Shown here: in pieces, positions 23,219-47,442 of the stretch
Layout: each line of letters opens with the position of its first letter
Position numbering within the stretch: position 1 is the first letter of the stretch
Assembly (NCBI GenBank): GCA_902780405.1
Contig: CACZFI010000002.1
Span: 47,810 to 111,809, forward strand
Reading direction: 5' to 3'
Origin: an uncultured Lachnospiraceae bacterium
GTDB taxonomy: Bacteria; Bacillota; Clostridia; Lachnospirales; Lachnospiraceae
Length of the DNA stretch: 64,000 bases
Program-made: the position numbers and the translations under genes
Notes under the pieces: generated by a model
The model's database searches: none
The model's input: the letters and a program-made list of their open reading frames with translations, nothing else
What the model was told of the DNA's origin: nothing

Positions 23219-24112
23219 TCACAATGTCATTTTCATGCCCACGGTGTCAAAATGATACACTGAATCTGATAAATAATCCATTTCGGATACCACGGAGCGG
23301 TTAATCTCATAAACCATCCTCTCCAAACCTTCGCGATCCGGAAAGCTTTTCTCCGGCACCAAAAGCAACTCATGCACACTGGAAGGGAGGATATAAAAGT
23401 CCTCTCCCACTTCCCTGCTCGCAAGTTCCATTGCCTCGGGAAGAAGCATGGAAGTTGCACCGTTGATGTTGCTGGTATTCGTAAGCACGTAGATTCCCGT
23501 CTCGGCTCCTTCCGGCACAGGACAAGCCCCTTCCGTAAGGAGTCTTGCAATCAGAGTATCCAACCGCTCGATCCTCGGCGGAAACAGTTTTAAGGTGTTA
23601 ACCTTCGCGAGTTCAAAGAGATGATCGACATCCTCTCCCCACTTGACTAAGTCGCTGTTTTCCACCGCCGTGGAAGATACGCCGTCCCCCGAGACTTTGG
23701 TCAGATACCTGAAGGTGACCGCAAGATCATGGAAGAGGATATACGGCATATTCCGCAGGGATGGTTCATTCTTTTTGTAGTTCACCACTCTTAAAAACAC
23801 ATGGTCTTCATATGCATCCTTTGAAAAGTCCGCATACTCTCCTTCGGAGAGAACGGATGATGCTCTCCGATACTCCGCAGCGATCTCTGCAAGCACGGTT
23901 TCCATAGACGCTCCGCTTTCGTACATGGAGTAATAGTACTCCATGTAAATGTTTGGTGCCACAGGCGCATCCTTCTTCCTTAGCATAAGGCCCTGCAGTA
24001 AAACACCGTTGTTCTTCTCAATCGGTCGCACCGATACGTCCTCGAAATCACAATCGAGGAGATAGTCGCCGATCTCATCGACGACAGCATTCAAAAATTC
24101 TTTATAATCCAT
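23219..24112 (-). CDS. DUF5688 family protein
   Basis: KNNGVLLQGL, APNIYMEYY, VLTNTSNINGA, YILPSSVHE and YLSDSVY pattern recognised from memory. Confidence 0.75.
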   Translation of the reverse strand: MDYKEFLNAVVDEIGDYLLDCDFEDVSVRPIEKNNGVLLQGLMLRKKDAPVAPNIYMEYYYSMYESGASMETVLAEIAAEYRRASSVLSEGEYADFSKDAYEDHVFLRVVNYKKNEPSLRNMPYILFHDLAVTFRYLTKVSGDGVSSTAVENSDLVKWGEDVDHLFELAKVNTLKLFPPRIERLDTLIARLLTEGACPVPEGAETGIYVLTNTSNINGATSMLLPEAMELASREVGEDFYILPSSVHELLLVPEKSFPDREGLERMVYEINRSVVSEMDYLSDSVYHFDTVGMKMTL

Positions 24113-25260: not shown

Positions 25261-26544
25261 CTATTTTGCTGCCGCAAAGCCTCTCTCAAGGTCGGCAATG
25301 ATATCGTCAATATGCTCCGTACCGATGGAAAGACGGATGGTATTTCTCTTGATTCCCTGGTCGAGAAGTTCCTCGTCGGAAAGCTGCGAATGCGTTGTAG
25401 ACGCAGGATGGATCACAAGTGACTTCACATCTGCAACATTCGCAAGGAGGGAGAAGATCTGTAACGCATCGATAAATTTCCATGCCTCTTCCTGTCCGCC
25501 CTTGATATCAAAGGTGAAGATGGAACCGCCTCCGTTCGGGAAATACTTCTCATAAAGCGCATGGTCCGGATGGTCCGGAAGTGACGGATGGGATACATGC
25601 TCAACCTGCGGATGCTTGGAAAGGAACTCTACCACCTTGGCCGCATTCTCTGCGTGACGCTCAAGACGAAGCGACAGTGTCTCAACACCCTGAAGCAGCA
25701 AAAATGCGTTGAATGGTGAAATGGTTGCACCCGTGTCACGAAGCAGGATCGCACGGATGAATGTAACGAACGCTGCAGGTCCTACCGCATCATAGAAAGA
25801 TACACCATGATAGCTGGGGTTCGGTGCTGCGATGTTCGGATACTTTCCGCTTGCCTTAAAATCAAACTTGCCGGACTCTACTATAATACCGCCTAATGTG
25901 GTTCCGTGTCCACCGATAAATTTGGTTGCGGAGTGAACTACGATATCTGCGCCGTGCTCGATGGGACGGATCAGGTAAGGTGTGCCGAAAGTATTATCGA
26001 TCACAACCGGAAGTCCGTGCTTGTGTGCAAGTTCGGATACCGCATCAATATCGGGGATATCACTGTTGGGGTTGCCGAGGGTCTCAAGGAAGATGGCTCT
26101 CGTATCCTCTGTGATCGCTGCCTCAACCTCTGCGAGATCATGTACATTGACGAAGGTTGTCTTGATACCGTACTGCGGAAGTGTGTGTGCAAGCAGGTTA
26201 TAGGTACCTCCGTAGATGGTCTTCTGCGCCACAATGTGACCGCCGTTGGCTGCAAGCGCCTGGATCGTATAGGTAATGGCTGCCGCGCCGGATGCAAGGG
26301 CAAGCGCTGCGCTTCCGCCCTCTAAAGCTGCCAGTCTCTTCTCTAACACATCCTGTGTGGAGTTTGTGAGACGTCCGTAGATATTTCCGGCATCCGCAAG
26401 TCCGAAACGGTCTGCAGCATGCTTGCTGTTATGGAATACATAAGATGTGGTCTGGTAGATGGGTACCGCTCTGGAATCGGTAGCGGGATCCGCCTCTTCC
26501 TGTCCTACGTGTAACTGTAATGTTTCAAATCTGTAATCACTCAT
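25261..26544 (-). CDS. metY: O-acetylhomoserine aminocarboxypropyltransferase (sulfhydrylase)
   Basis: [34 protein letters not shown] and IRLSIGTE. Confidence 0.93.
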
Positions 26545-26580
26545 TTTTAAAATCTCCTTTTCATCCTATATCTCTGTAAA

Positions 26581-26709
26581 TCAGTTTTCTATCATCTCTC
26601 GGCGTTGACAGCTGCAACATCCGAATACCTTTTCCGTGTACTCTGCCTTGCGGCAACACATTCGATCAAGCCATAAGCTGCATGTCCTATATCCGGTTCT
26701 GGGTTCCAT
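26581..26709 (-). CDS. Unannotated 42-aa Cys-rich peptide (leader/first cistron of metY-cysK)
   Basis: Hand translation: MEPRTGYRTCSLWLDRMCCRKAEYTEKVFGCCSCQRREMIEN*. AAAGGAGG lies 8 nt upstream of the ATG. The ORF is below the ORF-track length cut-off. Confidence 0.65.
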   Translation of the reverse strand: MEPRTGYRTCSLWLDRMCCRKAEYTEKVFGCCSCQRREMIEN

Positions 26710-26760
26710 GTCTTCCGCCTCCTTTTTTCATGTTTCGGTTCATTTCTTAAGGACAGGCTT

Positions 26761-26795
26761 ATCTTATCATCAACAACCTACTAAGTCAATAGGTT
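26761..26795 (-). promoter_or_regulatory. Promoter TTGACT-17-TAAGAT with an overlapping palindromic operator AACCTAyT-N5-ArTAGGTT
   Basis: -10 at 26761-26766 and -35 at 26784-26789; the dyad at 26775-26795 covers the -35. Confidence 0.7.
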
Positions 26796-26854
26796 TAATA
26801 GGCTCAGGCTATAGCGAATTCGGATAACTTGTTATAGGCGATTCCTATATACCA

Positions 26855-26898
26855 AAAAAGGCCCGGAACACGCTACCTTTGTAACGTGTCCGGACCCG
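26855..26898 (-). terminator. Terminator after the hydrogenase-MCP gene
   Basis: GGGTCCGGACACGTTAC...GTAGCGTGTTCCGGGCC followed by TTTTTT on the minus strand. Confidence 0.75.
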
Positions 26899-26908
26899 TA
26901 ATGCTTTG

Positions 26909-28879
26909 TCAGATACCGGCAGCCTCCTGGCTGTCCTTGACCAGTTTCTGAAGTACAACCCGTACCTCCTCCACAGTCTCGGAAATGCTGTTGGTGGAAT
27001 CGGAGATTTCCTCGGTCGAAGCGGCAAGTTGGCCGATCTTATCCTTCACACTCTCCACGATGTCGAGCAGCTGGGATGTCTCGCCTGCAATATAGCTGAT
27101 GGCATCCTGAATGTTGCTGTTCGCCTGTCCGCTGCTTTCCGCCGTCTCCTTGGAATCGGCCGCTAAGTTGTTGATCTCACCTGCGACAACCGCAAATCCC
27201 CTGCCTGCCTCACCCGCTCTTGCAGCCTCGATCGAAGCATTCAGCGCAAGCAGATTGGTCTGGTTGGCGATATCCACGACTTTGTCGTTGTTAGCCGTAA
27301 GTTCTTTTAAAGCGCCCGTGATATTGCCGATGGAATCGTTCAGTTTCTCGCAGAAGCTCGTGACACTTGTCATCTCCTCGGAGATGGAAGCGCTTTGCTT
27401 TGCGTTGTTTTCATTACCCTCGGACATACCGCTGATGGACTCGCGAAGTTCGCCGAACCTCTCGTTGATATCCTCCACGATGTGATAGATCTCATCGCGC
27501 TGCGCATTTAAGACAGCTCTCTCGTGCTCCACCATATCCTGTGCTTCCACCTTCTCAAGTTCCACGAGATCCTTCAGGTAGTGCACACAGTTGTCCTTGT
27601 GATTAAAGCCGTTGTAGATGGCCGTCGCCATCATCTTGCAGCTGTCGTAACCGCAGCAGGAACAGTTGATCTTTCTGGATGCATCGGTCAGCTTGTGCAT
27701 ATCCGTAAAGATTCTGTCGAGTTCCGCAGGTGACGGCGTCTTGTAAGTACACTGCGCCGACCTGTCGGTATAGTTGCGGATATAATCCTCAAGCTTCAAG
27801 TGCTCGAACTGCTTGTTTAACGCAGCCAGCCTCTTCTCCGGTGTAAGTGTCCTTGACCATACGCTCTTCTTGTCGTTCTTCTTGACACTCTCCTGAATGT
27901 CATGGATGTGATAAAGCGGATCATCACAGTCCGTCACCGCGGGATCCGTGGCCGTACCGCAGATACATCCGTTCTCGCAGTTTAGAGCGTCCACGAACAG
28001 ATAAGGCGTTCTGCCGCCCTTGATTCTGTCGGCGTTCTTCTCTAAGTAGTGGTACATCTTCTTCTCGCCCTCAATCTGGCGGATGAAGACTTCGTTGCCG
28101 AGAAGCCAGTAGACGTTCTCCTTCAGGCCGCCGGGCATCGGATAGATCGAACCGAGACCGTACTCGATCTCATCCTTGATGGGATCCCCCATCAGGTTGT
28201 GGCTCTTCACATACTTCATCAGATGGTCAAATGTGACGTTGTACCGAATGTAGCCCTTGGTGTTCGGATCGGCGATCTCCATCTTCTTGGCGATACAGGG
28301 ACTGATAAACGCGAACTGATCCGTGATCCCAAGTTCTTTTCTCGCATAGATGGCAGCGCACATCATCGGACTGTGCACGGGAAACAGCTTCGGAAGAAGC
28401 TCCGGCAGATAGCGCTCGATATAACCCACCACCGCGGGACAGGGCTGGGAGATGCCGCCTAAGTAGTTGTGTTTCTGAATGTAGTTAATATAACCCCAAG
28501 TTGTGATATCAGCACCGAACGAAACGCTGATCAATCTGTTCACGCCGAGTTTCTTTAAACCACCCAATACTCTCTCGTAATCCCTCGGGTAGTCTGCGAG
28601 AAACGCCGGTGCAATCAGTACGGATATCCTTTCACCCCTCTTTAACGCCTCAAAGAATTCCTCCGTGTCGTCACGGAATTCTCTTGCATGATGCTCACAG
28701 GCATCAAAGCAGGCGCCGCACGAAATGCATCTGTCCTTGTCTACTTCTATACGGGACACCCCGTTTGCGTCAGCTTCCGTCGAGACGCAAGCTCCCATAC
28801 AACTACAGGCACTGATACACTTGTTGCAGCCTACACAATTTTCATTTGTGTAGACCAAAGATTCCTTTCCGAATTCCAT
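26909..28879 (-). CDS. [FeFe]-hydrogenase-like domain fused to a methyl-accepting chemotaxis signalling domain (putative group C2 sensory hydrogenase)
   Basis: Two CxxCxxCxxxC ferredoxin motifs; H-cluster-like motifs [15 protein letters not shown] and [10 protein letters not shown]; extra FeS motif [10 protein letters not shown]...NC; MCP core [27 protein letters not shown]. Confidence 0.85.
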
Positions 28880-41283: not shown

Positions 41284-44200
41284 CTATTTTCGTCCATACT
41301 TTTTCATTTTGCGTGAAAGTACCACTGCTCCTGCGCCCGAAACGCTCATCATGAAGACGATCAGCATGATCGGTGCCATATCTCCGGTCTTCGGTGAATC
41401 TGCGGATCCCATGTATCCGTAAAGTACAGGCTCATTGGTTGCCGTCTTTGAAGGTGTTACCGTTGCATCCTTGGACTTATTGCCGGAATCTGAGGACCCG
41501 CCGTTGCCTCCGTTGCCGGGATCGGGGTTTGTCTTGCCCTTCTCGTGTGAGGTAAAGAGTGCCGCAATCACGGTGTCACCGGTAATCTTGTCGTACGCCT
41601 TGTCCCATCTTTCGAATGTGTAGGTGTACTTATCCGTAGCCTTCTTGGTCGGCGTCTTGGTGGGCGGCGTAGCTGCCTTGCCCTCCTGTACGGTTTCCGT
41701 CTTCATCACGGCACCGTCACCATCAACCCACTTCACCGTGTAGTTCTTCGGATTCGGCTTCTCTACTTTGTAAAGCGCATATACCGAGAACATATTGGTG
41801 CGGATGGAAATCTCATCGTGTGTCAGTGTCACAGACTCATAATCATCACCGCTGATGAAGGTGTATCCGTCCTCACTGTTGCCGTGCAGGGATGCCACAT
41901 AGATGGTCTGACCTGCCAGGTCGCCGAGCGGGAATGTCACCGTGATCGGCTCATAGAGATGATCGAGGAAGCAGGGTGTTTCATTTACATGAACGCCGTT
42001 CCTGTCGATAACTTCCTTCACGATGGTAAGCTCAATGTATCTTACGATCTGAGCATCTTTGCCGACACCGTCATCCAGAGCCTTCTTGGCAACACCGCTC
42101 ACATCCACATACTTTGCATGAAGCGTGATCTTGATGGAACCTCCGTTGGCTACAACCTGCTCATCGTCGGGTGTGACATTGCCCTTGTAAAGCGCGGTGT
42201 TGTAAATCTTCTCGAGTCCGTCTACCGTAAGTTCCACGTCTCCGTCATCAAGCTCAACCGCAGTGCTCTTGCCCTGATTCAGAATGAGATGCACGCCGTT
42301 CTTGGTGCCGTAATCGGTCGGATAAGTGATTCCCTCGTTTGCAACGGTCACCGACTGCTCGGAATTAAGGCTTCCGTCTGTTGCAACGATTCTGTAGGAT
42401 CCGGCAGGAATGTCATCGAAGAAGAATGCCGTATTGTCCGCATCCGTGATCTTCGCTCCCGCTACAGCCGTGTTGCCTTTGTAAAGGCTTACATAGATCG
42501 GGAAGTTCTTAAATGCATCATCCGTGCCGGTTGCATAATCCGCAGTGCCTCGGATGGTAGTACCCTTATCGTAATTCAATGTCTTGAAGGATCCGGATAC
42601 CACGATCTCTTCATTGGACGTCTTGGTCTTGGCATGTACGCGATAATCGTAAGTGGTATCCGCCTTAAGTCCCGTCCAGTTGTTGGTCAGGTGCAGACCG
42701 CTTCCGGTAGCTTCCTTGTTCACAAGTGCCGAACGATATGCGGATTCGGACCTCTTCTTGAACTCGATGTAGCATCCGCTCTCATCGATGTCGTCGGATC
42801 CCTTCACAACATCTGCCTCGATGTGTGCGCCGCTTGTGGTGATGGCACTTACAGGTGATACTGTCATGGAAAGCGGTGTGAATACCACTTCATCCGACTT
42901 GTTGCCTGCAATATCGTATGCGTAGATGGTGTAGGTGTTGTTACCTGCTGCGGTAAAGCTTCCTGTGATCAGTCCGTCGTTTTCATCAACGTGAATCGGT
43001 GTGTCATTGACATAAACCTTGGTTGCATCCGGTCCGCTCACCTGGTCTGTTACTCGGAAGTTCACGGTGACATTGCCATCCGCTACTACCGAGCTTGTGA
43101 TCTCTACCTTCGGGAGCTCGGTGTCCACCTTCAAGGTCTTAGTCGCCTTTAAGCTCTCAACGCCGGACTGGCTCACTGCATAAGCCTCAATGCTTACCTC
43201 GCCCTGCTTGTCCACTGTGAAGGACTTTGTGGCCGTGGTAAATGTATCGGAGTCGGAATTGGCTCCCTTGTTGTAGATCACCTTGTAGTGTGTGGTGACA
43301 GCCGTATTGTCCGCGGTCATGGTTGTGGAATTTACGGTTGCCTTCGGTGCCTCGGTAATATACCAGCTGTCATTACCGAGCTTACCCTCGCCCTGAAGTT
43401 CCACGTCGATGGTCGGTGTCTCGGGCGGTGTATTGGAAATCTTGTTGAATGTCTTTACCTTGGTGGCTTGATTGCCGGCCTTATCGGTAGCAACGATGGT
43501 GTAGCTGCCGTTCTTGGTAATGGTGTAGGTATACGCACTCTCCGCCGTCCAGGACTTTAAGAGGTGGGTATCATCAATTGTCAATCCATCGTACAGCTTT
43601 ACGCTATCCACGCCGGACTCGTTGGCAGGCTCGGTTACCGTAAAATTCAAGTTGATCTGCTGCTTGAACTCCGTGGAATCCACATCTTCTCCCGCGTCAA
43701 TGGTCGGCTCGTTCGGGTCATACATAAATGAACCGACGGAATCCGTAGTGTAGGAGTTGCCTGCGTTGTCATATACGACACCCTGCGCACTGTAGGCACC
43801 GGCCTCGGTATAACCGAGTGTCTTGGAGAAGGTATAACCTGTTACCTTTCCGTAATCCTTCTTGGCTGAAGCGCCTGCTTCGGTTACTGTCTCGGTTGTG
43901 GTGTCTGTTGCACCGGAGGGAAGTGTGATCTTCCACTCAAACTTGTTAAGACCGCTGGCATCATCCGTAGCCGCAGCCGCAAATGTAAGGTCATTGTACC
44001 AGATGGGGCTGTCCGGCGTGGAAGCGCTTGCCGGCGCTCCGTCTGAAGATGCACTGATCGTCGTACCGACGATAGTGTTTTCCACGATCCACTCATAGTA
44101 AGGATCGCCGGGTTTTACAGATTCGTTGGCATTGCCGGTGTTGAGTTTTAATTTACTTGCTTCGGAAGGGATTCCGAGTTCATTCTTCGCATATACGATC

Positions 44201-47200
44201 AGCTGGCCCCTGTCACCGGATCCGATGGAGAAGTTGAATGTATAACAGTCTCCTGCCTTCGTCGGATTCTTGATCACAGATTCCTTGTTGCCCACCTTGC
44301 TGCCGGACTCATCAAGGAAGTAGTAATAAAGTTCCGTACACTGGCTTCCGCTGGTCTCATAGGTCACACTGAAGTTTAAGCCGGACATATTATTATAATA
44401 TGCACCGAAGGTAAGTCCGGGTGCGAAGAAATTCGGCTTACCGGGATTCACTTCGTATGCTACCAGTCTCGGCATATCGGGATCGATATTGATGTTGGTA
44501 AGTGTTACCTTGGTCGCAACCGCATGATCTGCGGAATTGTAAAGCAGGAAGTCAATGGTTGCATTCGTCAGTTCTTCATTGATAAAGATCTGACCGGAAA
44601 GACCTGTCTCTGCTGCCGAATGGGTTGTACCCTGTGCAATGTCGGATCCTGTTCCGTTCATGGAAAGAAGTCGGATCTTGTCGTACTTGGTCGTATCCTT
44701 CGGTGTGATGGTAAGACTTCCATAGTAACCGTTCACGGGAGTCTCTGCGATCTCGTAGAAATTCTCGCCGGGGTCACGGGAAACATTCACTGTCTGAGAA
44801 TTCACAACCGTTACGGCATAGTTACCGTCCGTTGCAAATGTCGGTGTTACGGTGTAGCTGGATTCCGCAGGTGCGTACAGATTGCTCTGCAGATGATTCC
44901 ATGAAGACTGCGGATTCATACCCAGGTAATTGGTAAGGAATGCATCCGGATCCGCATCATACAGATCTCTTTCGGATGCCGCAAGTTTGGTCTTGTCCTG
45001 AACACGAACAATATAGTCCGGGTTGTCCTGTCCGAAGAGGATGTCGTTCGAAGCGCCTGTCGGAAGCTCCGTGGTCACCTTGACGGGTGCCTGGTCTACG
45101 GTGGCGATTCCGTCCGTCACGATGGTACCACCGCTTACGCCTGTAAGTTCATAGTAATCGGAGATGTCATTGTCCGATCCGTCCAATGCATGAAGCACGG
45201 CGCCGGTCAGTGTCAGGCTCTTGCCCGTACCCGCATCTTTGCCGCGTTCGCTTCCGTTATCATTCAAAGTTGCCTGTGAATCGTAGGTCACATAAACCTT
45301 GTCATTATTCACCGTAGCCGCGCCGGTAACTTTAGCGGTCGCATTAACGGAGATTGTATTCAGTCCGTCGTAAGTCTTTGAAGGTGCATCCGTTCCGCCG
45401 TTGCCGCTGAATACGGTCGTGCTGTCTAAGGCCACCTGTCTCTTGTTGATGGTGATTGTGATCGTAAGCGGTGTGCCCGTACCACCCTCGATCTCGTTCG
45501 GGTCTCTTGCGACCGCGTCGAGTGTCAGAACGTCCGTCTTGTTGGGTGTACCGGAAACGGTATATGCGTTGGTTGCACCGGTTACTCCGAGCCCATAGGT
45601 ACCTAAGGTAGATACGTCTCCGGCATCGAGTTCGATCGTTACATCCTCGCTGGCTGTACCGCCGTTCTTGTAACGTGCGGAAATCGTATGTGTGGATCCG
45701 GTCTCGCCGTAGGTATAGTCGAGGCTTGCGGTTCCGACCTGCGGCTCCCCGTCTACCAAAAACTCTAGCTGTCTGTACTCCCATACACCGACTAAGGTGA
45801 CACCGCCGACATTCTGATCCACGGTAGGATCAGCGCCGTTCACCGTAAGGCCGTTCACCGTGTTCACAGTGGCGTTCGCGATCAGGTCCGTACCTGTGGA
45901 AATTCTCCAGCCTGCCAGATAGTATGCAGGGTTCTTGCAGTAAGATGCCACCGATTCCGCTGTGGGAAGTGTTGCGGTCGAACCGTAATTATAAGTAGCA
46001 TCGGAAAGGAATTCCTGGCTGCCCGATGCGGAAAGATCGTCAATTTCGTCTGCATCGAAGAGCTGGAATCGAAGATCCACAGACTTCGGCGACCATTTGG
46101 ATGTAAACTCAACCACGTTGTTCTCGGAAGTTACGGCAAATGTCTCGCCGATGGCATGAAAGGCGTTGCCGTTGATACCTGTGAAGTTCCATCCGAAACG
46201 ATAGTAATTATATGTAGCAGCGTTGCCTACGGTGTAGTTCACGCTGGGTTTTGTCTTTCCGAAGTTCTCGGAAGACTCGGGAACGGGAAGTTCGATCACA
46301 ACCGGATTGTCATAAGCTTCCGTTGCGTTGTTTCCGTCGTCCTCAAGTCCATCGGAAATGTTAAGTGTATATTTGGTTCTTGAAACAGAGAAATAATAGT
46401 TTAACTCATAGATCTTGCTGTTGGTGGTACCACAGGAAACCGTCGTTGCCGAAGAGTTCTGTGCCGTACTGAATGCCTGATCCGTATAAAGGTAGTTCGT
46501 TCCGTCCGCCTTGTCTACCTTAAAGTAGTCCGCACTGTAGCCTGCATCCGCAAGGAGCTGAGCTGCGGGACGGAATGTAAGGGTTGCGATACGGGGCTTG
46601 TTGGTCTCTCCGTTATCTTCATAGCTTACGACAGCCGTATCATCCGTAAAGACGGTTCTCTTGCCGGCATCCGCCGTAACTAAGATGTAGTTGATCTTTA
46701 CGTCGTCGAGACCGTCCGTTCTGCCTGCGACATTCTTGGTCTCCGCAGACAAGCCAAAAGCAGAGGCAAGTGCATCCTCTGTAGTGGTATCGGAATCGGT
46801 TGTATTTGTATCGTTGGAGGTGTCGGCAGCGGGATCGTCTGCCACATCGATGACATTGTCGTCAAGTCCGTCGGAAAGATCTATGTTATCGGTATCGCTA
46901 TTTGAGGTGTTGGTATCGTCGGTTGTTAAGGCAGTGTCAGTTGCAGGATCTGCGGGATCGGTTACTTCGGACTCATCTTCCGCTGCCGCTTCGGTTGTCT
47001 CTTCCGTAGCGGTATCGAGTCCTTCCATGGATGCAGAGGACGTCAAAAACAGAGACTGTGTGATAAGAAGCGTCATCACAAGTACAGAAACTACAAGCTT
47101 CCGTCCGTTCCCCTTTCCCCAGTAGATCATATGCGAGATTGCGGTGATCACCGCAACCAAAGCAAGCGTCGGATAAACCAGGATCCGATGCTTCTTGCCG

Positions 47201-47241
47201 ACATCAAGCAGCCTTTTAACAATTCTGTCTTTCATACCCAT
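41284..47241 (-). CDS. ~1985-aa sortase-anchored multidomain surface protein
   Basis: N-terminal hydrophobic leader, acidic linker, InlB B-repeat-like units, YDG-like PSKTYDG, Ig/FN3-like segments (WTGLKADTTYDYRV), and C-terminal SPKTGD plus TM plus basic tail. Confidence 0.88.
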   Translation of the reverse strand: MGMKDRIVKRLLDVGKKHRILVYPTLALVAVITAISHMIYWGKGNGRKLVVSVLVMTLLITQSLFLTSSASMEGLDTATEETTEAAAEDESEVTDPADPATDTALTTDDTNTSNSDTDNIDLSDGLDDNVIDVADDPAADTSNDTNTTDSDTTTEDALASAFGLSAETKNVAGRTDGLDDVKINYILVTADAGKRTVFTDDTAVVSYEDNGETNKPRIATLTFRPAAQLLADAGYSADYFKVDKADGTNYLYTDQAFSTAQNSSATTVSCGTTNSKIYELNYYFSVSRTKYTLNISDGLEDDGNNATEAYDNPVVIELPVPESSENFGKTKPSVNYTVGNAATYNYYRFGWNFTGINGNAFHAIGETFAVTSENNVVEFTSKWSPKSVDLRFQLFDADEIDDLSASGSQEFLSDATYNYGSTATLPTAESVASYCKNPAYYLAGWRISTGTDLIANATVNTVNGLTVNGADPTVDQNVGGVTLVGVWEYRQLEFLVDGEPQVGTASLDYTYGETGSTHTISARYKNGGTASEDVTIELDAGDVSTLGTYGLGVTGATNAYTVSGTPNKTDVLTLDAVARDPNEIEGGTGTPLTITITINKRQVALDSTTVFSGNGGTDAPSKTYDGLNTISVNATAKVTGAATVNNDKVYVTYDSQATLNDNGSERGKDAGTGKSLTLTGAVLHALDGSDNDISDYYELTGVSGGTIVTDGIATVDQAPVKVTTELPTGASNDILFGQDNPDYIVRVQDKTKLAASERDLYDADPDAFLTNYLGMNPQSSWNHLQSNLYAPAESSYTVTPTFATDGNYAVTVVNSQTVNVSRDPGENFYEIAETPVNGYYGSLTITPKDTTKYDKIRLLSMNGTGSDIAQGTTHSAAETGLSGQIFINEELTNATIDFLLYNSADHAVATKVTLTNINIDPDMPRLVAYEVNPGKPNFFAPGLTFGAYYNNMSGLNFSVTYETSGSQCTELYYYFLDESGSKVGNKESVIKNPTKAGDCYTFNFSIGSGDRGQLIVYAKNELGIPSEASKLKLNTGNANESVKPGDPYYEWIVENTIVGTTISASSDGAPASASTPDSPIWYNDLTFAAAATDDASGLNKFEWKITLPSGATDTTTETVTEAGASAKKDYGKVTGYTFSKTLGYTEAGAYSAQGVVYDNAGNSYTTDSVGSFMYDPNEPTIDAGEDVDSTEFKQQINLNFTVTEPANESGVDSVKLYDGLTIDDTHLLKSWTAESAYTYTITKNGSYTIVATDKAGNQATKVKTFNKISNTPPETPTIDVELQGEGKLGNDSWYITEAPKATVNSTTMTADNTAVTTHYKVIYNKGANSDSDTFTTATKSFTVDKQGEVSIEAYAVSQSGVESLKATKTLKVDTELPKVEITSSVVADGNVTVNFRVTDQVSGPDATKVYVNDTPIHVDENDGLITGSFTAAGNNTYTIYAYDIAGNKSDEVVFTPLSMTVSPVSAITTSGAHIEADVVKGSDDIDESGCYIEFKKRSESAYRSALVNKEATGSGLHLTNNWTGLKADTTYDYRVHAKTKTSNEEIVVSGSFKTLNYDKGTTIRGTADYATGTDDAFKNFPIYVSLYKGNTAVAGAKITDADNTAFFFDDIPAGSYRIVATDGSLNSEQSVTVANEGITYPTDYGTKNGVHLILNQGKSTAVELDDGDVELTVDGLEKIYNTALYKGNVTPDDEQVVANGGSIKITLHAKYVDVSGVAKKALDDGVGKDAQIVRYIELTIVKEVIDRNGVHVNETPCFLDHLYEPITVTFPLGDLAGQTIYVASLHGNSEDGYTFISGDDYESVTLTHDEISIRTNMFSVYALYKVEKPNPKNYTVKWVDGDGAVMKTETVQEGKAATPPTKTPTKKATDKYTYTFERWDKAYDKITGDTVIAALFTSHEKGKTNPDPGNGGNGGSSDSGNKSKDATVTPSKTATNEPVLYGYMGSADSPKTGDMAPIMLIVFMMSVSGAGAVVLSRKMKKYGRK

Positions 47242-47442
47242 ACCTTTCACCTCAAAATGTACTGATACTCTGCCTTATAAGCACTAAAACGCGGGCATAA
47301 ATGCCCACACTGACTCAATAGTATAAGACATTTTACCATATTGCAACAAAAAATAAAATACTTTTTTATAAGATTTATACCAAATATAGTATCTTTTTTG
47401 ATTCAGGTTCGGATATTTTGTAGTTTTGCTTCCGGATTCGGA

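Follow-up and report, generated by a model that had tools for sequence, protein, structure and literature searches.

A cysteine-rich small open reading frame upstream of metY-cysK in a Lachnospiraceae contig as a probable member of a family of leaders with a CGA-AUG codon pair

We analysed a 64,000-nt stretch of contig CACZFI010000002.1 from an uncultured Lachnospiraceae bacterium (assembly GCA_902780405.1; "the window" below is this whole stretch, and locus coordinates are on the (-) strand), in which a Cys-rich small open reading frame (sORF) precedes the sulfur-assimilation genes metY and cysK (Table 1). The original prediction, made from the letters alone, had claimed here an unlisted ORF of 42 codons with six Cys codons, a ribosome-binding site (RBS) and a stop 36 nt before metY, and all of this is confirmed: an ATG-initiated frame occupies 26581..26709 (-) behind the Shine-Dalgarno (SD) sequence AAAGGAGG, its stop ends at 26581, and the metY ATG follows at 26544, 36 nt further. 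The SD stands in an extended GGAGGCG stretch that is common to relatives, and with a 5' untranslated region (UTR) of ~45 nt the sORF is not leaderless. The 42-aa product, MEPRTGYRTCSLWLDRMCCRKAEYTEKVFGCCSCQRREMIEN, carries Cys at C10, C18, C19, C31, C32 and C34, and 21% of it is Cys or Met; six Cys in 41 residues correspond to P = 1.7e-5 at the Cys frequency of the window (1.3%) and to P = 2e-3 for random codons. Its core module is separated from the start by 15 codons, a distance that most Lachnospiraceae relatives have too. The second Cys cluster is homologous to an end module of relatives, "CGA-UGU-UG(A/C)", with CGA changed to GGA in the window; its counterparts are "CGA TGT TGC AGA TAA" in locus L025 and the conserved CGATGTTGA in family A. 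Gene callers left the sORF uncalled on three conspecific contigs, a peptide-level homology search with the window sORF gave no candidates, and a look-up of the exact product was also empty. NCBIfam and Pfam, including the SCIFF model (TIGR03973), have no match to the sORF at E <= 10. The earlier statement that no S-box or T-box is present agrees with Rfam, which has no match at E <= 10 in 26000-27200 and none at the gathering score across the whole window.

Table 1. Features of the metY-cysK locus in the window.
Feature	Position	Strand	Remarks
Leader sORF	26581..26709	(-)	ATG start at 26709; 42 codons + stop; 6 Cys, 3 Met
Shine-Dalgarno AAAGGAGG of sORF	26718..26725	(-)	8 nt 5' of ATG; in register in DNA profile
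Candidate core stall module CGA-AUG-UGU-UGC (R16 M17 C18 C19)	26653..26664	(-)	CGA-ATG invariant in ~50 loci
Second Cys cluster GGA-UGU-UGC-AGC-UGU (G30 C31 C32 S33 C34)	26608..26622	(-)	From comparison with L025 and family A
Spacer, 36 nt, holding metY Shine-Dalgarno (GGAG at 26557..26554)	26545..26580	(-)	No terminator or sequestering helix
metY, O-acetylhomoserine sulfhydrylase, 427 aa	25261..26544	(-)	TIGR01326, 632 bits
cysK, cysteine synthase A, 309 aa	24315..25244	(-)	TIGR01139, 452 bits; start from L081 gene call
Sigma-70-like promoter TTGACT-17-TAAGAT with TG extension	26761..26789	(-)	9/12 matches in scan
Palindrome AACCTA-N9-TAGGTT over -35 hexamer	26775..26795	(-)	Same box ACCTATTGACAtAGTAGGT upstream of metY in most loci

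A leader sORF recurs at related loci, as had been expected for operons with metY. We fetched 80 orthologous loci (L001-L080; MetY orthologues at 82-92% identity) from rumen and gut Lachnospiraceae, Oscillospiraceae, Treponema, Anaerovibrio and Atopobacter, and about 50 of them have an upstream sORF with an in-frame CGA-ATG (Arg-Met) pair and adjoining Cys codons. The start-to-CGA distance in the family is 12-16 codons, most commonly 15, which is also the value in the window. The general pattern is M-x14-15-Arg(CGA)-Met, the pair occupying codons 16-18, with a Cys codon no more than 2-3 codons away, and R16-M17-C18-C19 of the window conforms to it. The number of Cys residues, by contrast, for which conservation had been anticipated, ranges from 0 to 6; what is conserved is Arg(CGA)-Met at a fixed distance from the start with at least one Cys codon adjoining, which makes Met at least as likely a signal as Cys. 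When a DNA profile built from 50 leaders, with the window left out, was run with nhmmer against both strands of the window (128 kb), the best match was the window sORF (26734..26645, E = 0.01, 12 bits), with the SD, ATG and CGAATG aligned ungapped and in register, although the significance of this match is modest. A second match at 44583-44622 ("CCRM") lies on the other strand inside a very long ORF of 1988 aa (41284-47250 (-)) and was rejected as chance. A 16-nt stretch, TGTTGCCGCAAGGCAG, is common to the window and L074, and GGATGTTGCAG is common to the window and L025. Judged from these sequence comparisons, the window sORF is very probably a homologue of the leader family. MetY is 82-92% identical among metagenome-assembled genomes (MAGs) labelled Lachnospiraceae, Oscillospiraceae, Treponema, Anaerovibrio, Atopobacter and Mycoplasmatota, which suggests either that a metY(-cysK) cassette, leader included, has moved horizontally between anaerobes of the rumen and gut or that contigs were mis-binned.

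The family extends well beyond these loci. With the profile of the sORF peptides, a word search found 38 proteins and an exhaustive hidden Markov model (HMM) search 137 clusters (50% identity representatives, E <= 1e-3), most of which follow the consensus M..[FW]..L[LV][RH].N[FY]R[CF]G-R-M (an example reads MKNYFEKLVRANFRFGRMC..), with R at residue 17 in 120/133. This N-terminal motif is lost in other Lachnospiraceae members as well as in the window, and the C-termini of family members are unrelated to each other. Cys makes up 6.0% and non-initiator Met 5.5% of the family sORFs, against a background of 1.3% and 2.6%. Peptide P0016 occurs upstream of metY on ~600 contigs; P0036 and P0001 also stand upstream of metY, P0004 precedes a metY behind which a Met-type ABC transporter is encoded, and P0038 lies between metI and metQ, with 18 nt separating its stop from metQ. 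Isolates with a member of the family include Lachnospiraceae YSD2013 and AB2028 (family A), Oribacterium NK2B42 and Faecalibacterium. All family members are without a match in Pfam and NCBIfam, Rfam has no match in 20 related leaders, and the motif strings of the family have no match in the open literature that was searched; a DNA-pattern scan of metagenomes (CGAATGTGYTGY..CGNAARRC) gave only chance matches in soil and other metagenomes among the matches listed. The family is large and apparently undescribed.

Two kinds of codon usage bear on whether and how these sORFs are read. In a comparison of 16 distinct loci, each of the conserved Leu, Val, Arg, Arg and Gly residues is written with three to six synonymous codons, four to six in the case of Leu, Arg and Gly, including switches between CGN and AGR, which indicates selection on the amino acids; together with the SD, this family-level synonymous variation suggests that the sORF is translated. 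The Arg before Met is CGA in 13 of 15 loci outside the Lachnospiraceae and in all Lachnospiraceae members, and the share of CGA among all Arg codons is 1.9% across 75 metY genes and 5.6% in the long ORFs of the window. Across 54 distinct sORFs, CGA is followed by a Met or Cys codon in 82/90 cases, compared with 11/163 for the other five Arg codons (P = 3e-44; the counts are not phylogenetically independent), and in 30/38 when the anchoring R-M pair is excluded. Of 30 additional CGAATG or CGATGY motifs in the leaders, 27 fall within the sORF and keep its reading frame, and units are repeated in some sORFs: L074 has CGA-AUG-UGC, CGA-UGU-UGC and CGA-UGU-UGA, and the Faecalibacterium type has three CGA-AUG units. 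This pairing of CGA with Met and Cys codons argues for a function at the level of decoding. CGA is decoded through an inefficient I:A wobble, and it may sensitise the codon that follows.

What such a sensor could control is visible in the relatives. In ~30 leaders of Lachnospiraceae or intermediate type, three elements follow the R-M pair: element 1 consists of the codons directly after it (nnC-UCC-CGG-GCA), element 2 is UGCCCGGGAG, ~100 nt downstream of element 1, and element 3 is the complement of element 2 followed by a U-run, so that elements 2 and 3 form an intrinsic terminator. The RNAalifold consensus is the alternative helix of elements 1 and 2, with 10 pairs, five of them showing compensatory changes; with a 5-bp extension, AUGGC:GCCAU, 9 of 15 pairs show double changes, a value reached by 0/500 shuffles, and 90% of cells are paired, compared with 23-52% when the partner is slid. 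Every member of this helix set also has the terminator. The apparent peptide conservation "NSRA..MAG" is therefore due to RNA pairing and not to the protein. Two other interpretations of this region were discarded: pairing of CGAAUG with CAUUUG beside element 2 is not nested topologically, and a T-box-like reading of AUGGCC fails in that AUGGCC pairs, with covariation, with GCCAU.

In an equilibrium folding model of 27 leaders, with the ribosome represented as an unpaired block from P-12 to P+14, the antiterminator forms with a mean probability of ~0.6 when the A site is at the Cys codons before CGA, 0.40 when it is on CGA and 0.09 when it is on AUG; for the next ten codons after AUG the value is 0.00, with the terminator at 0.93. 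In this model neither fold clearly prevails when no ribosome is present, the two being near balance, and many leaders favour the antiterminator. Cys codons stand just before R-M in 119/133 attenuator-type members; 55 other members have Cys just after R-M, at the first position in 23/51. In four relatives without a terminator (L074, L077, L073 and L095), the core of the sORF is complementary to the RBS that follows (z < -2.4), as when UGUUGUUCC of L095 pairs with GGAACAACA (z about -3), and the terminator-less sORFs of L095, L097 and L077 likewise stop a short way from the following RBS, which suggests a second, translational mode. Whether an sORF has Cys codons is only loosely correlated with the presence of cysK downstream, and the idea was dropped: L073, L075 and L079 have cysK without Cys codons, and L066 and L067 the reverse. 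In the Treponema MAG loci L010, L066 and L067, the UAG stop of the sORF is overlapped by a conserved hairpin, GGCUGAAAG-NCC-UUUAGCC, and an alternative pairing, CUUUUC:GAAAG, takes in the codons right after the Cys codons; this arrangement looks like a third type of expression platform. The L062 leader, which contains an sORF, is transcribed in a cultured relative (RNA-seq X32-X34, L062:560-1500), with leader:metY depth ratios of ~3:1, 1:1.2 and 1:5 in three samples of unstated conditions and a divergent stretch at 940-968 that breaks the mapping. Regulated read-through is one possible source of this spread, which by itself does not allow an interpretation.

The enzymes encoded behind the leader are extremely sparing of sulfur. 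The 427 aa of window MetY include no Cys and, apart from the initiator, no Met, 75 MetY orthologues average 0.04% Cys and 0.24% Met, and window CysK has no Cys and five Met, in a window proteome with 1.3% Cys and 2.6% Met. Enzymes so poor in sulfur can be translated under starvation for sulfur amino acids, and a sulfur-free enzyme behind a sulfur-rich leader is what would be expected if the leader gauges the supply of Cys-tRNA and Met-tRNA and the enzyme has to be produced when these run short.

We give an even chance to the reading that the window sORF is translated and acts in cis as a leader, being a divergent Lachnospiraceae representative of the sORF family that precedes metY (and in at least one case metQ), and that it still responds to Cys or Met in this organism. 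The sensor would be the ribosome itself, reading a rare, slowly decoded CGA followed by Met and Cys codons at codons 16-19, where it would dwell when Met-tRNA or Cys-tRNA is scarce. In relatives the dwell position would then select the antiterminator or the terminator (transcription attenuation) or unmask the next RBS (translational attenuation); a stall at the Cys codons would free the antiterminator, and a ribosome 1-11 codons further on would lead to termination. In the window, ribosome traffic that ends 36 nt before metY could have a weak translational effect or none, Rho and mRNA decay are other candidate outputs, and most of the control would fall to the conserved promoter operator. Stalling itself, the direction of its effect and any effect in the window organism are what we infer. 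As for the proposal that the leader senses Cys, the conserved family, the Cys and Met codons at places where a stall frees the antiterminator in relatives and the Cys- and Met-poor MetY speak for it, but the window has no terminator, no antiterminator and no RBS duplex.

The missing output weighs against a working leader in the window. Inspection and folding for the switch elements gave no CUCCCGGGCA/UGCCCGGGAG-type pair and no CCCGGG-type elements in the window, and neither scan nor folding found an intrinsic terminator in 26545-26760. The leader does not fold better than its shuffles (z = -0.15 and -1.4), and the RNA structures that had been envisaged over the metY RBS did not materialise, the best duplex of sORF and RBS reaching -4.2 kcal/mol (z = +1.4). 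The second module has lost its CGA, the N-terminal consensus ..F..L[LV]RxN[FY]R[CF]G is absent from the window, which has MEPRTGYRTCSLWLD there, and a conserved N-terminal peptide in most members is something that a pure codon-counting leader does not need. Nine loci (L007, L011, L032, L033, L037, L043, L070, L078 and L080) combine the operator and a short UTR with no sORF; the many orthologous loci of this kind indicate that the leader is dispensable and has been lost repeatedly. Even for the relatives, the equilibrium model would leave termination in the replete state unexplained unless assumptions about timing are added. Rumen metatranscriptome contigs placed on the window show only cross-mapping to conserved metY, with zero depth over the leader, and carry no information on it. 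Finally, the sORF frame is intact in three conspecific contigs (L081-L083) and one sheep-gut contig (run X2), and the only variants among them, R4K, L14R and S33C (window positions 26613 and 26669 are among the sites), are all non-synonymous, which fits a leader with an unimportant peptide but would fit drift as well. S33C (AGC->TGC) turns CCSC into CCCC and adds a seventh Cys, and polymorphism among conspecifics peaks in the 36-nt spacer that precedes metY, where it exceeds that of the sORF. A sheep-gut contig (X2) joins the operator region to the metY start (26547/26776) and skips the 228-nt leader, its shorter side matching over 21 nt; it probably represents a related organism that has no leader and not a deletion variant of the window species.

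The window copy is either a sensor with no visible output or a relic, and a sensor may persist after its switch is gone. That it is a relic, descended from an attenuator whose terminator and antiterminator were deleted, with the operon now controlled only by the factor at the promoter palindrome, is a possibility that we hold to be real but clearly short of an even chance. Neither type of expression platform known from the relatives is present, the N-terminal consensus is gone, the second CGA is mutated to GGA and the sORF stop is displaced relative to L025; loci with operator and short UTR but no sORF are common, so loss is frequent, and all three sORF polymorphisms are non-synonymous. Yet the strong SD, the intact 42-codon frame, the exact 15-codon spacing and CGA-AUG-UGU-UGC have all been kept, one polymorphism gains a seventh Cys and removes none, and the downstream spacer varies more than the sORF. 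A translational mode is hinted at by L095, L097 and L077, which have no terminator and likewise end near the next RBS. A further alternative moves the sensor from the codons to the nascent chain: ..F..LLRxNFR[C/F]G-R-M, acting in the exit tunnel as TnaC or SpeFL does, would stall the ribosome at R-M in response to a metabolite (Met, S-adenosylmethionine (SAM), Cys or homocysteine), the stalled ribosome would cover the antiterminator strand, and the end product would shut the operon off. Selection at the amino-acid level on the 18-residue N-terminus, with R17 in 120/133, is in line with this, as are the sORFs of L073, L075 and L079, which end R-M-stop; in the masking model, moreover, Met in the P site masks element 1 and leads to termination, and an active "off" signal is sensible where many ribosome-free leaders favour the antiterminator. 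We nevertheless consider peptide arrest unlikely. Lachnospiraceae members, including the window, have no peptide consensus, and among them the RNA switch was kept while Cys and Met codons were gained; the alternation of F and C two residues before the Arg tracks the type of expression platform; and the strict CGA and the recurrent in-frame CGA-UGU and CGA-AUG pairs argue for decoding and not for the peptide. With the motif absent, this reading is inapplicable to the window copy as such.

Two simpler explanations leave the leader function aside. The original prediction had offered a small metal- or sulfide-binding protein as its alternative, and six Cys in 42 aa together with co-transcription with sulfur-assimilation genes would suit a free-standing Cys-rich protein (binding metal or sulfide, or active in redox) or a precursor of a ribosomally synthesised and post-translationally modified peptide (RiPP) of SCIFF-like type. 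We regard this as very improbable: there is no NCBIfam or Pfam match, including to SCIFF, at E <= 10, no maturase is nearby (the neighbours are a hydrogenase-like methyl-accepting chemotaxis protein and metY), and the Cys count of the family runs from 0 to 6. Beyond R-M, the sequence of the relatives follows the demands of RNA pairing and shows no other conservation, the C-termini being unrelated. A chance ORF in the 5' UTR, to which one might turn for a frame that is short, was missed by gene finders and has no direct peptide homologue, is hardly credible: the Cys excess (P = 2e-3 to 2e-5) speaks against it, as do the strong SD, the profile match in register and the stretches of 11-16 nt in common with other metY leaders. 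For the family as a whole, we put forward more tentatively that it is a new class of ribosome-based sensor of sulfur amino acids, widespread in Clostridia and Spirochaetes, in which a P-site CGA would sensitise AUG or UGU to the supply of Met-tRNA or Cys-tRNA, the nascent LLRxNFR[C/F]GRM would tune or gate the stall, possibly by binding a metabolite, and expression platforms (terminator, RBS masking or, in the window, neither) would be interchangeable; this wider proposal is well short of an even chance.

In Firmicutes, metY and cysK are usually controlled by S-box (SAM-I) and T-box elements and by CymR, and leader-peptide attenuation is considered rare. The present system concerns the same genes, and the relatives follow the same terminator/antiterminator logic, but its sensor would be a translated ORF, with no Rfam match in the window or in 20 related loci. 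TnaC, SpeFL and the MTO1 region of plant CGS1, which senses SAM, are metabolite-sensing arrest peptides, and the family resembles them in that a metabolic operon is preceded by a short, conserved peptide whose length is fixed, with some members ending R-M-stop; it differs from them in that the window has no conserved peptide, the constraint on the CGA codon is foreign to those systems and arrest is hypothetical here. Like trpL, hisL, pheL, thrL and leuL of Proteobacteria, the sORF is a short, SD-led frame in the leader of a biosynthetic operon and contains codons for the amino acids of the pathway, and relatives in which a terminator competes with an antiterminator that takes its 5' strand from the ORF resemble classical attenuators. 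The closest parallel in detail is uORFC-8-2, the cysS leader of Rhodobacterales, whose tandem Cys codons at positions 14-15 (PMC8632094) are like those of the Lachnospiraceae members. Here, unlike in uORFC-8-2 and the classical attenuators, the phyla are Bacillota and Spirochaetota, the genes are metY, cysK and metQ, Met and Cys codons are combined, an invariant rare CGA precedes the sensor codon and most members have a conserved 18-aa N-terminus; the window further departs from classical attenuators in having neither terminator nor antiterminator.

Actinobacteria have Cys leader sORFs without terminators in front of their cys operons (Seliverstov et al. 2005, PMC1262725), and control by a Cys leader has been shown experimentally for the leaderless polycysteine sORFs of mycobacteria (Canestrari et al., 10.1101/834739); pausing of ribosomes on Cys tracts, proposed or shown, opens the structure over the next RBS (10.1101/834739; PMC1262725). 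The window sORF is like these in being a Cys-rich sORF before a Cys-metabolism operon with no intrinsic terminator, and four terminator-less relatives share the RBS duplex. It differs in having a 5' UTR with a strong SD and few Cys codons (CC, CCSC) tied to CGA-AUG, in showing no sequence relationship and, in the window, in having no RBS-sequestering duplex. To the caution that control by Cys-codon leaders is not established in Firmicutes it must be added that there is precedent outside that group (10.1101/834739; PMC1262725; PMC8632094). Leader-peptide attenuation and Cys-codon leaders are already known in kind; new are the phyla and genes, the dual reading of Met and Cys, the invariant pair of CGA and sensor codon, the conserved N-terminus and the exchange of one expression platform for another. 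Most of the interest attaches to the family that was reached from the window locus, a large set of translated leaders before metY and metQ in abundant rumen and gut anaerobes, including genomes of Faecalibacterium type, that is directly testable through the CGA-AUG and CGA-UGU pairs, the conserved nascent peptide and the sulfur-free enzyme behind a sulfur-rich leader. It bears on codon-pair effects in bacterial decoding, on unannotated small ORFs in microbiomes and on ribosome-dependent attenuation where transcription outruns translation.

The operon promoter of the original prediction stands in part: a scan found its hexamers, and the -35 lies in a conserved palindrome, but the promoter-like site by itself is not above chance (two sites found, 1.4 expected). 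Its position relative to the palindrome is kept in relatives, and the palindrome box lies upstream of metY in most loci whether an sORF is present or absent; one conspecific variant falls inside it (A->G at 26782). From its sequence and recurrence it is probably the operator of a transcription factor, and may be the site of a CymR-like (Rrf2) factor. In L043, an Rrf2-like gene (CymR/IscR family) ends just upstream of the palindrome boxes. Further conserved palindromes occur upstream of the promoter at 26833-26849 (TATAGG-AATCG-CCTATA) and 26811-26830 (GTTATCCGAATTCGCTATAG), and boxes of the TTATAG/CTATAA and TTATC-N7-GATAA types recur farther upstream of metY loci.

The gene upstream of the leader (26909-28879 (-), 656 aa) encodes an N-terminus like that of the large subunit of 4Fe-4S/[FeFe]-hydrogenases fused to a methyl-accepting chemotaxis signalling domain, and the fusion protein may act as a chemoreceptor for H2 or redox state. 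A strong terminator at ~26897-26854 closes the gene. On the other side, cysK is followed by a gene for a DUF5688 protein (270 bits; 23219-24112 (-)), after which, on the conspecific contig L081, come a cold-shock protein and a TetR-type gene.

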